Origin: a virus
Taxonomy: Duplodnaviria > Heunggongvirae > Uroviricota > Caudoviricetes
Reading direction: 5' to 3' (one strand)
DNA: 27,572 bases
IMG/VR virus record: IMGVR_UViG_2639762873_000006
Span: 1-27,572 of that record
Made by a program: the position numbers and the translations under genes
Shown: piece after piece, positions 3,148-16,063 of the stretch
How the letters are laid out: each line of letters starts with the position of its first letter
Numbering within the stretch: position 1 is the stretch's first letter
Notes under the pieces: generated by a model
What the model saw: only the letters and a program-made list of their open reading frames with translations
Databases searched by the model: none
Told to the model about the DNA's origin: nothing

Positions 3148-3153
3148 TAATAT

Positions 3154-3180
3154 AGCCCACTAATAAAAGTGGGCTTTTTA
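3154..3180 (+). terminator. rho-independent terminator (AGCCCACT / AGTGGGCT stem, then TTTT)
   Basis: 8-bp perfect stem, 6-nt loop, T-run, directly after the stop at 3145-3147. Confidence 0.7.
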
Positions 3181-3198
3181 ATCTAATAAGGAAAGTAA

Positions 3199-3672: not shown

Positions 3673-3678
3673 TAATCT

Positions 3679-3700
3679 AGCCCACTACTCACAGTGGGCT
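3679..3700 (+). repeat. second copy of the AGCCCACT / AGTGGGCT hairpin (different loop, no T-run)
   Basis: Same 8-bp stem as at 3154-3175 with conserved flanks (TAATAAT.TAG upstream, AATCTAA..AGGAAA downstream). Confidence 0.5.
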
Positions 3701-3725
3701 ATTCAATCTAACGAGGAAAAATATA

Positions 3726-4382
3726 ATGACAGGTAAAGAACTATTTGAAGAATTTATTATGCACGATCACCGCAAAGGACTTACATGTACTATTGATATT
3801 CGTCCTTCCAGTAAGCCGGGATTCGAACTAATCGGGGTAGGTCATTTCAATTTAGGTAAAGGTTATCGTTTCTATCTCAGCGAAGACTGCGTAGAAATCC
3901 GTGATAATCTATCCCGCTTACGTCATGAACATCGTAAAATAGTATCAGAACGGTTAGACGATCCAATAGAGGCACTAGATTCAATTATCTATTCTTCTCT
4001 ATATGGTGATTATCATGGCTGTACTAATCGTTATTTTGGCGGTGTATTAGTTCACTACGCATTAGAACTAAAATCAAAGATAACCGTAACTATATCTACT
4101 GATGAAAACTTATTGTTCAAAGATCTACCGCCAGATGTACAGGAAGAAATGAAGTATGATGTATATCTAAAAGATCGCAAACGTGTAGTAGCTTATGACT
4201 CATTACAATATAGTGATAATAAAGAATTTATCCTACAACACTATAAACCATGTGCCCCACATCCAAATCGTGTAGTATTCACAGATGGAACGGCAGAACA
4301 GCTACAAGATCAATCACCAGTACATATACCTGGCTATACTGAATACGTAACTAGCTATACTGGTAAACGCCACTTCAAGTAA
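3726..4382 (+). CDS. hypothetical protein (218 aa)
   Basis: ORF with RBS GAGGAAAA; no recognisable motif. Confidence 0.6.
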   Translation: MTGKELFEEFIMHDHRKGLTCTIDIRPSSKPGFELIGVGHFNLGKGYRFYLSEDCVEIRDNLSRLRHEHRKIVSERLDDPIEALDSIIYSSLYGDYHGCTNRYFGGVLVHYALELKSKITVTISTDENLLFKDLPPDVQEEMKYDVYLKDRKRVVAYDSLQYSDNKEFILQHYKPCAPHPNRVVFTDGTAEQLQDQSPVHIPGYTEYVTSYTGKRHFK

Positions 4383-4395
4383 TCCCATCCCCTAA

Positions 4396-4422
4396 ATACT
4401 CCTATACATGCTATAGGAGTAT
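4396..4422 (+). promoter_or_regulatory. perfect 11-bp stem hairpin whose 3' arm contains the GGAG Shine-Dalgarno of the next gene
   Basis: ATACTCCTATA catgc TATAGGAGTAT; GGAG at 4416-4419 lies in the right arm, 9 nt before the ATG at 4429. Confidence 0.4.
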
Positions 4423-4815: not shown

Positions 4816-4991
4816 ATTGCATAGACAATGCATAAACAGTGAATAATAGAATGATGGTATACTTCGGTACTGATAGGTGAAACATATCAACATTATGTGC
4901 AATTTGTGCGATTTTATCGAAAAATGATGAAATAAATCAAAATAAAGGTTGACAGTCCAAAATTATCATAGGTTCTCCCAAAAATGGCAAA

Positions 4992-5013
4992 GAGGGCGAG
5001 TTTTCGCCGCGAG
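4992..5013. other. GC-rich island in an AT-rich non-coding region; candidate cos/terminase recognition element
   Basis: GAGGGCGAGTTTTCGCCGCGAG is the only GC-rich stretch in the 4816-5132 intergenic region, about 120 bp upstream of the terminase small subunit; contains a GGCGA/TCGCC hairpin and elements like those I recall from lambda cos (GGGCG, GTTTTCGC). Confidence 0.25.
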
Positions 5014-5132
5014 TTATAATAAAAATACGTGAGAAATTTTACATAAAACAAACAAATATATAGATAAAACCTATTAGTACCGAAATAGATAGAAAATACC
5101 AATCAATGGAAAATGAATAGGAATTGCATAAA

Positions 5133-12046: not shown

Positions 12047-15000
12047 ATGGCAGATCAAATTTTTACAGGGAGTGGTTTTAAATTATTTTATAATGACGAT
12101 ACCGCAAACCGTATCCCCGATAACGCAGGGAACGAGCTAGTAAATGAATTGGCGGCTATGCCTTCATTCGGTATTGATAGCCAAGTACAAACTATTGAAG
12201 TATATAACAGTGAATTTTCAGAGAAACTACTCGCAGAACAGAACGTAAACGATATTGATATTGTTGTTAACTACGTACCAGATTGCACCGCTCACGCATT
12301 TTTAGATCAAGCGACCGAAGATCAGACCGAGTTCCAGCTAACACTACAGTACGCCGTAACTGATGGTATCATCTCCTACAGTATGGTGAATGGTATGATT
12401 AGTTCCGCTCGCCTTGCTGGTGATAAAGACTCAGTAGTTACTAAATCATATACCTTTACCCCTACCGACGTTCTAGTACGTGATGGACAGGCACCATTGA
12501 GTACCGGACTAGTTGTAGGATCATATGGCGTAGGTAGTAACGGCGTAGACGTACCACAGTACGAACCACAGTTACCAAATGGCAACAGTTTTATCAAAGT
12601 ACCAGCAGCACGCAATGATAACCCAGCTAGTGCGGATCTAATGGGTATTGGTCTTATCGATTCCGGTACATTCTCCAGTATTGCAATGACTAAATCCGGT
12701 ACATTGGCAATCTATGCAAAGAACCAGAATACAGCATGGACGCGTATACTTACTGCAACTCAGATTAGTGATCAGTATGTACCACTTACGCGTAAGGTTA
12801 ATGGTAAAGCACTAAATGCAGATATTACTATTACTAAAGTAGATGTAGGACTAGGTAACGTAACTAATGATGCACAATTGAAAATAGCTAGTAACCTTTC
12901 TGATTTAAATAACGTCAACACAGCCCGTACTAACTTAAAAGTAGCTCGTTTTGAAGAAACTAGACCAGACCTAAGTACAATTTATTCTACTGATGATAAG
13001 TCTGGATATAAAGTAGTAGTACGTAGTGATGGCTATTGGGGTGCAATGAATGCAGACGGCACAGTCACTAAAGGTCTATCGATTGACATGGGCGGTACTG
13101 GTGCAAATACATTAGCACAAGCTCAAGCTAATCTAGGTATTGTAACTAGTGCGGCACAGGATGGAAAATATCTAGCTAAGGCAAGTAACCTTTCTGATTT
13201 ACCAAGTAAACCAACAGCCCGTACTAACTTAGGATTAGGTACAGCAGCTACATATAATGTAAGTAGTTCCGGTGCAAACGTTCCATTAATGAGTAGTGCA
13301 AATACGTGGACTGGAATACAATATTTTGGCAATGCACAATTTACATCTACCTATGTTAACCCGTTATTGATTCATAGTCCTACACCTACAATCTATTTGA
13401 AAGATACAGATACAAACGGCTTAGGGATGAAATTAATTGCAGATGGTAGTGTATTCCGTATGCAAGATGATACCTCCGCTGAAACGTGGGCTTTTTCTTA
13501 TAATTACAGTACGAAAGTAGTTACAATGCCATCCTTGCAACTTGCAACTAAACTACAAGTAGCAGAAGGCGGTACGGGTGCAACAAATTGGAAACAGGCA
13601 GCATATAACCTTAACGTTATGCCATATAACCGCAATAGTTTAACTGCAAGTGATAATCTCAATAATTTTGGTGGTCTTAATGCTGGTGTATATTTTTGTG
13701 CTTCAAGTGCTTATGCAACCCCTGCAAATAACTACCCAGAAGCTAACGCAGGTACAGTAATAGTTTATCAGAACGCCGCAAATAGTAGTGATGGTTGTAC
13801 ACAATTTTACTATCCATTCAATACTAACAAAGCATATAAACGTATTCTAAGATTTACCAGTCCAACTACTTCTACGTGGTCATCATGGGCAGAGATCCTA
13901 ACCTCCGAACATATTACCCCCGGTAATATCCCTCGTTTAAATGGTGGTAATACGTGGAATGGTAACCAATCTATTGATACTGGTTATCTAACACTAGGTT
14001 TAAAAAATACCAATGCAACCGCATTTGAAATTGGTAGCCAAACTACAAAAAACTCAGCTTATATTGACTTCCATACAAGCGGTTTAACTAATGACTATGA
14101 TACACGTATTATTGCAGAAACTACTACATCCACTGCAAATGGACAAGGTAAATTATCCTTCGTTGGTGGTGAGTTTAACTTTAATAATAATATTACAGGT
14201 CAGGGAAATATTACGGCTAATGCCTTTATCTCTAAAACTGTAGTTAGTGCAACTGGTGCTATCACTGGTGCAAGCCTCAATACTGGATCTGGTGCTATCA
14301 CTGGTGGTGCAATTAGCGGTACTACATTGACTACAACAGGAGCGGCGAAAGTAGGTAGTATTGATTCTACTGGTGGTCTATATGGGACTGGTGTAGTACA
14401 GGCAGATTCAGCCACTACTGGTACTTATATTAGAATGGGTAATGGTACAACTGATAACTATATCACAAGTAACAACTTCCCAGCAGGCGGTACACAACGC
14501 TATCTACAGTTCAAGAATGACGGTACTGTTAGAATCTCCGACCAGTTGATTATGCACAATAACTTAGATGCAAGTGGTAGCGACTTCCAAGTTACGGCTA
14601 ATAACTTCCGTATAGTAACTGGTGGTAATGGTCTACAGATCAAAAACAATTCAGGATCTGTATCATCTTATCTATCTGGCATTGGGTCTACTAACGTTCG
14701 CGAATGGTACATAGGTAAAGGTGGATCAGGTAAAGGGATTGCATGGTGGAACGATATGTCAGGCGGTCACGGTGTTGATTTAGGGGCAGATGGTAACATC
14801 ACATTAAATACCCTTGCCAGTACCGGAAACGTTAACATACGCGGTACTATGTCAACTACTGGTAGATTATCCGTAACAGGTGATGTAACAGCTTCCGGTA
14901 TAGTTAGAGCTAATACTACTTTTTCAGTTAATGGTACTAGTGGAACTTCTAACGCCCACCTATGGTACTACGGTCACACTGGAGCAAGTCGCGGCGTAAT

Positions 15001-15481
15001 CTATGCGGGAAGTGGCGGTACTATTAACTTCCGACCGGATCGTAATGATGCTGGGGGAGCTAATGGATACTCCGCAGCACTAGATTATACTGGTAAATTT
15101 ACTTGTATGTCGTTATCTCAAACATCCGACCAACGAGCTAAATATGATGCCGCTGATATTAGTGATTCACTAGGTAAGGTACTACAGCTAACTGGTAAGA
15201 CTTATAAAATGAAAGTTACACCAGAAGTAGAAGTAGATGGCGTGGGATTCTTTGCTCAGGAAGTAGAAAAATTCTTCCCAGAAGCTGTATCATCCGTTGG
15301 TAGTGCATATACTCAAGAAGGCGAAGAAATCGAAAACCCACTAGGTCTAGATTATCAGGCTATTTCTGTACTATATGCTGGGGCTATTAAAGAGCTAAAT
15401 GCTAAAGTAGAAGACCAACAATTACAACTCGATGAACTACGTGCTGTAGTAACTCAATTACTAATCGCACAGAATAAATAA
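12047..15481 (+). CDS. tail-tube-domain / tail-fibre fusion protein with C-terminal S74-type intramolecular chaperone domain
   Basis: Residues 1-150 align along their length with the 152-aa tube protein (15538-15996), roughly one-third identical by eye; two phage tail-fibre repeats (NLSDL...ARTNL); Gly/Thr/Ser/Asn-rich fibrous middle; C-terminal SDQRAKYD ... GFFAQEVEKFFPEAV ... coiled coil matches the S74 autoproteolytic chaperone pattern. Confidence 0.75.
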   Translation: MADQIFTGSGFKLFYNDDTANRIPDNAGNELVNELAAMPSFGIDSQVQTIEVYNSEFSEKLLAEQNVNDIDIVVNYVPDCTAHAFLDQATEDQTEFQLTLQYAVTDGIISYSMVNGMISSARLAGDKDSVVTKSYTFTPTDVLVRDGQAPLSTGLVVGSYGVGSNGVDVPQYEPQLPNGNSFIKVPAARNDNPASADLMGIGLIDSGTFSSIAMTKSGTLAIYAKNQNTAWTRILTATQISDQYVPLTRKVNGKALNADITITKVDVGLGNVTNDAQLKIASNLSDLNNVNTARTNLKVARFEETRPDLSTIYSTDDKSGYKVVVRSDGYWGAMNADGTVTKGLSIDMGGTGANTLAQAQANLGIVTSAAQDGKYLAKASNLSDLPSKPTARTNLGLGTAATYNVSSSGANVPLMSSANTWTGIQYFGNAQFTSTYVNPLLIHSPTPTIYLKDTDTNGLGMKLIADGSVFRMQDDTSAETWAFSYNYSTKVVTMPSLQLATKLQVAEGGTGATNWKQAAYNLNVMPYNRNSLTASDNLNNFGGLNAGVYFCASSAYATPANNYPEANAGTVIVYQNAANSSDGCTQFYYPFNTNKAYKRILRFTSPTTSTWSSWAEILTSEHITPGNIPRLNGGNTWNGNQSIDTGYLTLGLKNTNATAFEIGSQTTKNSAYIDFHTSGLTNDYDTRIIAETTTSTANGQGKLSFVGGEFNFNNNITGQGNITANAFISKTVVSATGAITGASLNTGSGAITGGAISGTTLTTTGAAKVGSIDSTGGLYGTGVVQADSATTGTYIRMGNGTTDNYITSNNFPAGGTQRYLQFKNDGTVRISDQLIMHNNLDASGSDFQVTANNFRIVTGGNGLQIKNNSGSVSSYLSGIGSTNVREWYIGKGGSGKGIAWWNDMSGGHGVDLGADGNITLNTLASTGNVNIRGTMSTTGRLSVTGDVTASGIVRANTTFSVNGTSGTSNAHLWYYGHTGASRGVIYAGSGGTINFRPDRNDAGGANGYSAALDYTGKFTCMSLSQTSDQRAKYDAADISDSLGKVLQLTGKTYKMKVTPEVEVDGVGFFAQEVEKFFPEAVSSVGSAYTQEGEEIENPLGLDYQAISVLYAGAIKELNAKVEDQQLQLDELRAVVTQLLIAQNK
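12890..12937 (+). repeat. tail-fibre repeat unit, copy 1 (48 nt)
   Basis: AGTAACCTTTCTGATTTA + 12 nt + ACAGCCCGTACTAACTTA; both 18-nt blocks identical to copy 2. Confidence 0.8.
13184..13231 (+). repeat. tail-fibre repeat unit, copy 2 (48 nt)
   Basis: Same two 18-nt blocks as copy 1 with a different 12-nt spacer; encodes SNLSDL....ARTNL. Confidence 0.8.
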
Positions 15482-15488
15482 ATAAACG

Positions 15489-15510
15489 GTAGGGAAAAGG
15501 CTTTCCCTAC
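15489..15510 (+). promoter_or_regulatory. perfect 9-bp stem hairpin between the fibre-fusion gene and the tube gene
   Basis: GTAGGGAAA aggc TTTCCCTAC, 8 nt after the stop at 15479-15481; no T-run. Confidence 0.45.
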
Positions 15511-15537
15511 TAATCCAACTTATATAAGGAAATAAAA

Positions 15538-15996
15538 ATGGCTTTTTCAATTATGACTGGTGCTAACCTAAAGGTAGAGTTAGGCACTTATACAGCAGGT
15601 AGTGATACCCCAGCAATCGATTTTAAAGAGATTCCAGAAGTGGCAACCTTTGCTACTAGTGGTTTTGAATCTACTGTAATTGACGTAGTTACTTACAACA
15701 GTAGTTTTAACCGTAAGCTACTAGGTACTAAATCCATCCCAGATATCGAACTAACTGTAAACTACCTAGCAGACAACGCAGTACACCAACAGTTAGAAAA
15801 ACTTGCAGACGATCAAGTACGTACTCAGGTTAAAATCACCTACTACGAAAACGCAACCCGTACTACTGGCTTCTTTGTAATCTATAATGCTTTCGTATCT
15901 GCTAACTTGATTGCAGGTAGTAAAGATGAAGTAGTAACTAAGGCATTCACCCTAGCGGTAGATGGCGGTCCTCTTTCTTCTGGCGTTAACCCATAA
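15538..15996 (+). CDS. major tail (tube) protein
   Basis: 152 aa, strong RBS, directly upstream of the chaperone pair and tape measure gene; followed by a strong intrinsic terminator. Confidence 0.7.
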   Translation: MAFSIMTGANLKVELGTYTAGSDTPAIDFKEIPEVATFATSGFESTVIDVVTYNSSFNRKLLGTKSIPDIELTVNYLADNAVHQQLEKLADDQVRTQVKITYYENATRTTGFFVIYNAFVSANLIAGSKDEVVTKAFTLAVDGGPLSSGVNP

Positions 15997-16008
15997 TCAC
16001 AATAAATA

Positions 16009-16042
16009 AGAGTGATGGAGTAATCCACACTCTTTTTTTTTA
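16009..16042 (+). terminator. rho-independent terminator after the tube gene
   Basis: AGAGTG(a)TGG agtaat CCACACTCT stem followed by a 9-T run. Confidence 0.75.
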
Positions 16043-16063
16043 TTTTACACAGGAATTATAAAC

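Follow-up and report, generated by a model that had tools for sequence, protein, structure and literature searches.

Gene organization around the stem-loop

The stretch of DNA analysed here (the window; 27,572 nt in full) is a siphovirus-type prophage with a terminase, a portal, a protease-capsid fusion and head-tail connectors among its genes, together with a tube-fibre fusion, a tube protein, chaperones, a tape measure and a lambda-J-like tip. For most of its extent the window is 94-96% identical to a prophage inserted in yegD of E. coli WGI31CT. The stem-loop under study lies between the tube-fibre fusion gene and the gene for the major tail-tube protein (Table 1). Residues 1-144 of the fusion protein constitute a tail-tube domain (phrog_158) that is 33% identical to the downstream tube protein, and beyond it lie fibre families and then a C-terminal Peptidase_S74 chaperone domain. 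The assignments to phrog_158, PF08813 and Peptidase_S74 uphold the labels that a first-pass annotation of this DNA had given to the two genes, a tube-fibre fusion upstream and a tube gene downstream. The perfect 9-bp hairpin that it described between them was reproduced in coordinates and arms. Its distances of 8 nt from the upstream stop and 28 nt to the tube start hold as position differences; 7 nt and 27 nt actually intervene.

Table 1. Features of the window around the intercistronic stem-loop.
Feature	Position	Strand	Description
Tube-fibre fusion gene	12047-15481	+	1144 aa; tail-tube domain, fibre and S74 intramolecular chaperone
A-rich tract	15473-15488	+	AATAAATAAATAAACG; last two fusion codons (N, K) and stop (15479-15481)
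Stem-loop	15489-15510	+	GTAGGGAAA (15489-15497), loop AGGC (15498-15501), TTTCCCTAC (15502-15510)
Spacer and tube ribosome-binding site	15511-15537	+	unstructured, U-tract-free
Tube SD core	15523-15534	+	TATAAGGAAATA (UAUAAGGAAAUA); SD GGA at 15528-15530, 7 nt before the ATG
Major tail-tube gene	15538-15996	+	152 aa; phrog_158, PF08813; stem-loop in its leader
Intrinsic terminator after the tube gene	16008-16046	+	bulged stem AAGAGTG(A)TGGA-gtaa-TCCACACTCTT, then T9-A-T4

Between the window and the E. coli WGI31CT prophage, the fibre portion of the fusion gene (12907-15411) has been swapped, homology stopping at 12906 and resuming at 15412. What the two fusion genes share is the coding sequence for residues 1-286 (the tube domain plus ~140 residues) and the last ~23 codons. 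With homology restored from 15412 onwards, a single conserved block takes in the hairpin, the tube gene and the final ~70 nt of the fibre gene.

The A-rich tract ahead of the stem-loop contains TAA in all three frames (15475, 15479 and 15483, as read from the sequence). A role for this three-frame stop as a module adaptor was rejected because nearly all relatives have the same stop register and most of the tract belongs to a conserved ...NK-stop end of the fibre protein. A frameshift or read-through stimulator, which would need a leaky or slippery site 5-9 nt ahead of it and an ORF extended past the stop or in another frame, was likewise rejected, given TAA in all frames at 15475-15485; read-through of the fusion stop would run only to 15533-15535, short of the tube ATG and in a different register.

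No sigma-70-like promoter site was found between the genes, near 15480-15537. A TACAAT-like hexamer present in many relatives was considered as a promoter and discarded, its last position not being conserved and the hexamer being absent from the window. The SD sequence of the fusion gene (AAAGGAAUUAAAAGAUG) is similar in strength to that of the tube gene. With two equally good SD sequences, making much more tube than fusion protein would need some post-transcriptional difference.

Structure of the hairpin in the window

The stem consists of 9 perfect base pairs, to which RNAfold adds an optional G15488-U15511 pair for a total of 10 bp. On its own the hairpin folds with -12.9 kcal/mol and includes 4 G-C pairs in its 9-10-bp stem. 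The folding free-energy check proposed in the first-pass annotation gave -14.6 kcal/mol for the 76-nt hairpin context (z = -2.5 relative to dinucleotide shuffles). Three distinct sites in the window form perfect hairpins with 9 bp or more and a loop of 3-8 nt, where ~0.9 would be expected, and all three are intergenic, in gaps that together account for ~4% of the window. The low z-score and this intergenic excess, together with the conservation and covariation in relatives described below, establish that the hairpin is real and not a chance fold.

No second copy of the hairpin sequence was found in the window, even with 3 mismatches allowed. This single copy, and the one covariance-model site per prophage reported below, led us to reject a REP/BIME palindrome. 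Rfam gave no window match at gathering thresholds, the best scores being 17-21 bits against cut-offs of 41-80; weak matches to cow-rumen-4 and DUF2815 RNA fall far below threshold and are at chance level.

Nearly all intergenic gaps of at least 36 nt in the window hold a stem-loop. Two near-duplicate intergenic cassettes at 3148-3198 and 3673-3725 read TAATAAT-N-TAGCCCACT...AGTGGGCT-(A/T)TT(T/C)AATCTAA(T/C)(A/G)AGGAAA, with stem-loops of 8 bp and 9 bp, respectively, a few nt after the stop, then AATCTAA and an SD. The tube leader carries AATCCAAC after its hairpin, similar to the AATCTAA motif of the cassettes. A perfect 11-bp hairpin (ATACTCCTATA-catgc-TATAGGAGTAT, 4396-4422) separates two early-region ORFs; no T-run follows it, and the next ATG stands 6 nt downstream without an obvious SD. 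The 308-nt non-coding gap upstream of the small terminase gene (4816-5123) has a predicted fold of -58 kcal/mol and holds a TTGACA-containing promoter-like stretch and a GGGCGAGTTTTCGCC hairpin; it may be the control region of the late operon.

Conservation and covariation of the tube leader

A megablast search of 12047-16000 against GenBank phages returned no matches, and a protein search recovered distant tube homologues only. Relatives were instead gathered with the tube protein from IMG/VR, GTDB genomes and metagenomes, which yielded ~78 loci and 60 distinct leaders for analysis; one locus (L007) was a false positive, a photolyase-like ORF. The relatives are prophages of Enterobacterales, with E. 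coli, Enterobacter, Serratia and Phytobacter as named hosts. Most of ~75 loci have a 780-1250-aa tube-domain fusion directly upstream of the tube gene; members of this prophage family as a rule pair a fusion of tube domain, fibre and S74 chaperone with a plain tube gene behind it.

In three relatives (L003, at 3910-4134, L020 and L074) a group I intron splits the tube gene after codon ~58; in L003 it matches Rfam RF00028 with 81.9 bits (E 2.5e-19). The leader hairpin of these three is atypical, with an 11-bp stem and the loop AATTCCATAC/AATTCCATAA. A distant homologue, Escherichia phage DCP80 (PQ671644.1, 13100-13800), is filed under Straboviridae (141 kb) but encodes capsid and tube proteins that are siphovirus-like and homologous to those of this prophage family; UUCG-loop terminators and T4-late-promoter-like TATAAATA motifs border its tube gene on both sides. 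Owing to this different arrangement (true terminators, TATAAATA), DCP80 was set aside as having no bearing on the hairpin.

The layout of the leader is constant in the 60 sequences: ...AAT AAA TAA ATA(C)AA, the hairpin, 5-12 nt, and CTTATATAAGGATATAAAATG. The upstream genes of the relatives accordingly end in ...NK and a stop, then ATA(C)AA. A hairpin of -5 kcal/mol or lower is found at the same place in 53 of the 60 distinct relatives, against 2.4% of shuffles, and one of -8 kcal/mol or lower in 78%, against 0.4% of shuffles. Stem lengths range from about 4 to 11 bp. The arm sequences are diverse yet complementary (GTAGGGAAA, GGGGTAAA, GAGGGATT, GTGGGGAA, GGGATAAA, GCGGTAC, GCTCTGAA and others).

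A covariance model built from 15 gaplessly aligned hairpins matches the window at 15486-15513 on the + strand. Across 878 kb, it finds one site per prophage, at the tube leader only, with a single exception inside a fibre gene (L035, 5385-5413, GGTGGATA-cggat-TATCCACC) that may be due to chance. In the model-based alignment, which was itself fitted to the modelled structure, paired cells amount to 98.5%, compared with 72.5% after shuffling and 35-61% after sliding the partner. Each of the 8 modelled pairs has changed on both sides, and none of 500 shuffles reached the covariation score of 0.638 (vs 0.17), a statistic that overstates independence because the relatives are related to each other. 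The result is nonetheless qualitatively robust, as many different stems are all complementary. A sequence-only analysis of the 60 leaders with MAFFT and RNAalifold returned no consensus structure, because the MAFFT alignment registers GGA rather than the stems. By these comparisons, the stem structure is under selection and is kept by compensatory mutations.

In seven relatives (L022, L024, L025, L030, L036, L039 and L045) the hairpin is kept behind small, unrelated ORFs of 76-152 aa. For this reason the hairpin belongs to the tube leader and not to the junction of two paralogs. The first-pass annotation had suggested that it sets the expression ratio between the two tube-domain paralogs: a role in tube expression at the RNA level remains a sensible reading, and the tie to the paralog junction does not survive.

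A strand-biased A-N-GGA motif in the loop

GGA is present in the loop in 51 of the 60 distinct relatives and in 31 of 34 stem classes, where ~2.2 would be expected from composition. The position two bases before it is A in 45 of these 51 loops, which defines the motif as A-N-GGA. The base directly before GGA is A in 34 and U or C in 17, and G never flanks GGA. Of the nine relatives without a loop GGA, three have inverted loops; the flipped TCC is seen in only 3 loops. In the control, the terminator hairpins that follow the tube gene in these genomes, loop sequence varies freely and GGA occurs in 7 of 58. Relatives with stems of only 4-5 bp (L025, L053 and L058) still keep AGGAA, so the loop is conserved more than stem strength. 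The strand-specific A-N-GGA points to sequence-specific recognition of the loop.

The loop reads AGGAC in L001 and L081, AAGGC in the closest relative (L080) and AGGC in the window. The A-N-GGA motif is thus degenerate in the window copy, which combines the strongest stem of the family with this degenerate loop.

Apparent loop inversions within the same stem (e.g. ATCCA for TGGAT) are seen in L031 (5949-5977), L021 and L003/L020, and the covariance model matches L031 on the minus strand. Inversions in L031, L003/L020 and L021 are a typical DNA-level event at palindromes and, with the position of the hairpin at the right-hand edge of the swapped fibre module, could suggest a palindrome that acts as DNA, whether as protein operator, recombination or mosaic-junction site, or cruciform, and has no function in RNA. 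Arms that vary widely yet remain complementary are the opposite of what a sequence-specific operator would show. Moreover, the module junction at 15412 lies ~75 nt upstream of the hairpin, and the loop motif is strand-biased. We regard a DNA-level palindrome as very unlikely.

Absence of a U-tract and the terminator question

The bases 3' of the stem are TAATCCAAC (UAAUCCAAC), which bears out the earlier remark that no T-run follows the hairpin. A G+C-rich stem-loop, the first hallmark of an intrinsic terminator, is present in the window; the second, a U-tract (~5 or more U in 8) 3' of the stem, is absent from the window and from the 60 relatives. A terminator scan did not call the window hairpin on the + strand. 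Real terminators with T7-T9 exist in the same genomes, one of them directly after the tube gene, where most relatives have a 10-14-bp stem with a T-run and freely varying loops. As no relative has a U-tract, the hairpin is not an intrinsic terminator. The first-pass annotation was right that it is not a canonical terminator, while its suggestion of a partial one finds no support on the same count (a U-tract in 0 of 60).

In Enterobacterales, efficient intrinsic termination needs a U-tract. A weak or partial + strand terminator that attenuates read-through into the tube gene would be in keeping with the perfect, G+C-containing stem right after a stop codon. Besides lacking the U-tract and a call in the scan, such a terminator would act in the wrong direction, with less major tube protein made per minor fusion protein, and all downstream tail genes depend on read-through. 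This makes attenuation a highly improbable function.

The same scan does list the hairpin on the minus strand, where the stem is followed by CGTTTATTTATTTATT, and the A-rich tract upstream on the + strand is conserved, as would suit a terminator of antisense transcription. In most relatives, however, 4-7 non-U bases (e.g. GAUUGUA) come between the stem and the U-rich run, and the conserved ...NK-stop codons account for the A-rich tract. The loop motif is also biased to the + strand (51 GGA vs 3 TCC), and no minus-strand gene or promoter nearby calls for an antisense terminator, an explanation to which we attach almost no probability.

Three terminator-like structures of the window stand apart from the hairpin. 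The terminator at 16008-16046 directly follows the tube gene, even though the chaperone, tape-measure and tip genes are located further downstream. At ~18949-18975 a terminator-like hairpin (AAAGGGGGC-ttag-GCTCCCTTT) follows the tape-measure gene, and at 25421-25447 the convergent genes 25159-25425 (+) and 25453-25905 (-, lysozyme-like) have a bidirectional terminator between them.

Candidate readers of the loop

The tube SD core TATAAGGA(T/A)ATA is 91-100% conserved; for the best-conserved tube peptide, third codon positions reach 68%. In relatives the spacing between the loop GGA and the SD GGA is ~20-33 nt, and in the window 29 nt separate the loop GG from the SD GGA. Two GGA sites of this kind are reminiscent of CsrA, whose dimer bridges sites 10-63 nt apart and for which a hairpin-loop site combined with an SD site is the glgC paradigm (PMC7652899). 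Scored against that pattern, the distance between the sites falls within 10-63 nt in the window and in relatives, and a second GGA overlaps the SD in the window (UAUAAGGAAAUA). The loop site, A-N-GGA in a hairpin loop, is lacking in the window (AGGC) and was scored as present in 51 of 60 relatives. CsrA SELEX ligands mostly have 4 or fewer stem pairs, and very stable stems may disfavour binding (PMC7652899).

A tblastn search found no CsrA homologue encoded in the prophages, and any CsrA reader would therefore be the host protein. Our literature search returned nothing specific on CsrA with prophage tail genes or on tube-fibre fusions, and no earlier account of the element. Against CsrA, AGGA is also SD-like and the SDs of this phage read AAGGAA, so that a ribosome-based reading fits too; nor is there an obvious reason for a phage to have one of its major structural genes repressed by CsrA. 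CsrA specifically is a doubtful identification of the loop reader.

Reading by the ribosome would take the form of a standby site or SD mimic, in which the 30S subunit binds the loop AAGG(A) and moves to the SD 29 nt downstream, boosting initiation for the most abundant tail protein. For a major structural gene an enhancer makes better sense than a repressor site, and two thirds of relatives have A-AGGA-A loops (A at N-1 in 34 of 51) that resemble the phage's own SDs (AAAGGAAUU at 12047 and 19014); even the AAGGC of the window keeps four anti-SD-complementary bases. The 17 of 51 loops with U or C before GGA would pair less well with the anti-SD, yet they fit A-N-GGA. GGAG is never found (G at +1 in 0 of 51), and the loop is not followed by a start codon. 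Unstructured stretches, not tetra- to hexaloops, are the usual form of standby sites. Standby binding is, in our estimation, distinctly unlikely.

Proposed function of the leader stem-loop

The fold and its covariation, the strand-biased loop motif, the missing U-tract and the linkage to the tube gene make it very probable that this is a selected RNA-level element of the tube-gene leader and not a terminator. More tentatively, we propose a conserved tube-leader stem-loop that acts on late mRNA as a two-site target of a GGA-reading factor and controls tube translation. In the scheme that follows, we infer that the element acts as RNA, what reads its loop and in which direction it works. The stem-loop would act on the late mRNA and not on RNA polymerase, with no termination of transcription. 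A stable stem forms directly after the three-frame stop of the preceding gene, and the family loop displays a single-stranded A-N-GGA ~20-33 nt before the tube SD, which holds a second GGA. A GGA-reading factor, most likely CsrA, would bind both sites, and the outcome would be control of translation initiation on the tube cistron and thereby of its mRNA lifetime. With the 3' end of the tube cistron closed by a canonical terminator, the amount of tube protein could be set apart from that of the tube-fibre fusion made from the same transcript. The loops of the window and of its closest E. coli relative have decayed to AGGC/AAGGC through loss of the A of GGA, while their stem is the longest of the family. 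The window copy probably keeps a structural role only, insulating and stabilising the tube cistron, with at most weak recognition of its loop.

Another account, close to the stabilising or processing element of the first-pass annotation, treats the stem as a physical barrier only, a passive element of mRNA stability or processing. In one version, the stem would block 3'-to-5' exonucleases and protect the upstream fibre message; in another, an endonucleolytic cut in the A/U-rich tract would produce a message running from hairpin through SD and tube gene to terminator, with the 5'-terminal hairpin protecting it from RNase E. Such segmental stability would raise the tube:fusion ratio, and the similar SDs of the two genes mean that a stability difference could set it. 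A stable, U-tract-free stem 7 nt after the stop agrees with a passive element, as do the bracketing of the tube cistron by this hairpin and a canonical terminator in the window and most relatives, the hairpins in nearly every window gap of at least 36 nt, and a window copy whose strongest stem and degenerate loop fit a purely structural role. A passive barrier leaves the strand-specific A-N-GGA unexplained, however, while terminator loops of the same genomes drift, and the relatives with 4-5-bp stems (L025, L053 and L058) keep AGGAA all the same. RNase E sites typically occur in a U-rich context, which the A-rich tract here does not offer, and that tract is largely a conserved ...NK-stop coding end. 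We consider a purely passive element somewhat unlikely.

Returning to the two-site leader element, its broader reading would be that the family places tube translation under host CsrA through the leader stem-loop and SD, or that the late mRNA serves as a CsrA sponge; both are speculative and unlikely. If true, production of virion tails would be coupled to the Csr physiological state of the host, a global post-transcriptional regulator would be wired into virion assembly, and the window lineage with its AGGC loop would be a natural escape or decay variant. If the reader is not CsrA, what remains is a clean case of an RNA motif of prophage tail modules that covaries and is unannotated.

Unequal amounts of co-transcribed structural proteins in phage late operons have mostly been explained case by case. 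Here a minor fusion and a major tube protein share a transcript and have similar ribosome-binding sites, and the stem-loop, with a loop motif under selection, is the only conserved feature between them. At ~60 nt this cis element is small and open to testing, and its loop varies naturally (A-N-GGA, AGGC and inverted). For annotation, the consequence is that the window hairpin should not be labelled a terminator.

Comparison with known elements

Several known element classes were compared with the hairpin and rejected. RNase III processing needs roughly 20 bp or more of mostly double-stranded RNA, and stems of 9-10 bp in the window and 4-11 bp in relatives are too short. As for the ops element of RfaH, the window alone contains CGGTAG. 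A lambda-type nut site has boxA (CGCUCUUA-like) upstream of a 5-bp boxB hairpin whose pentaloop is GNRA-like (GAAAA/GAAGA) and begins with G; it was rejected because no boxA-like sequence occurs in 15400-15540 and the loops here start with A, U or C. The hairpin resembles lambda boxB in its short stem and purine-rich tetra- to hexaloop recognised by loop sequence. It differs in its A-N-GGA loops, in having no boxA and in its place inside a late structural operon, and it is found also in relatives that lack the downstream terminator (the L005 group).

With Rho-independent terminators such as that at 16008-16046, the hairpin shares a perfect, G+C-containing stem a few nt after a stop and a preceding A-rich tract. 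It departs from them as a family without a U-tract and with a conserved loop where terminator loops are variable.

In the T7 gene 10 leader, a 5' stem-loop, an A/U-rich enhancer and an SD precede the major capsid gene. The tube leader is similarly built from a stable stem-loop, an A/U-rich tract (AACUUAUAUAAGGA vs T7 UUAACUUUAAGAAGGAG) and a good SD ahead of a highly expressed structural gene. The T7 hairpin, however, stands at the 5' end of a promoter-initiated or RNase III-processed transcript, and neither a promoter nor an RNase III-sized duplex is seen here.

Intercistronic stabilising stem-loops set operon stoichiometry in the Rhodobacter puf operon, in E. coli malEFG (REP) and in the pap operon. 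As in those cases, a U-tract-free hairpin lies between co-transcribed genes needed in very different amounts. The puf, malEFG REP and pap elements mainly protect the upstream segment from 3' exonucleases, whereas the abundant product here is encoded downstream. REP elements are repeated genome-wide, while this hairpin is unique in the window, and none of the puf, malEFG and pap elements has a conserved loop motif.

The remaining comparison is with glgC-type CsrA/RsmA leaders (E. coli glgC; RsmE-hcnA). Unlike these, the element described here is intercistronic in a prophage late operon and not the leader of a metabolic gene, its stems are 5-10 bp long vs 4 or fewer, the closing pairs are A-U and not C-G, and the window loop is without GGA; CsrA binding is putative. 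Like them, the relatives carry a short hairpin with an A-N-GGA loop upstream of a GGA-holding SD, in gammaproteobacterial hosts with CsrA and at a spacing within the range bridged by the dimer, and the SD context AUAUAAGGAUAU matches 10 of 12 positions of the CsrA SELEX consensus RUACARGGAUGU (PMC7652899).
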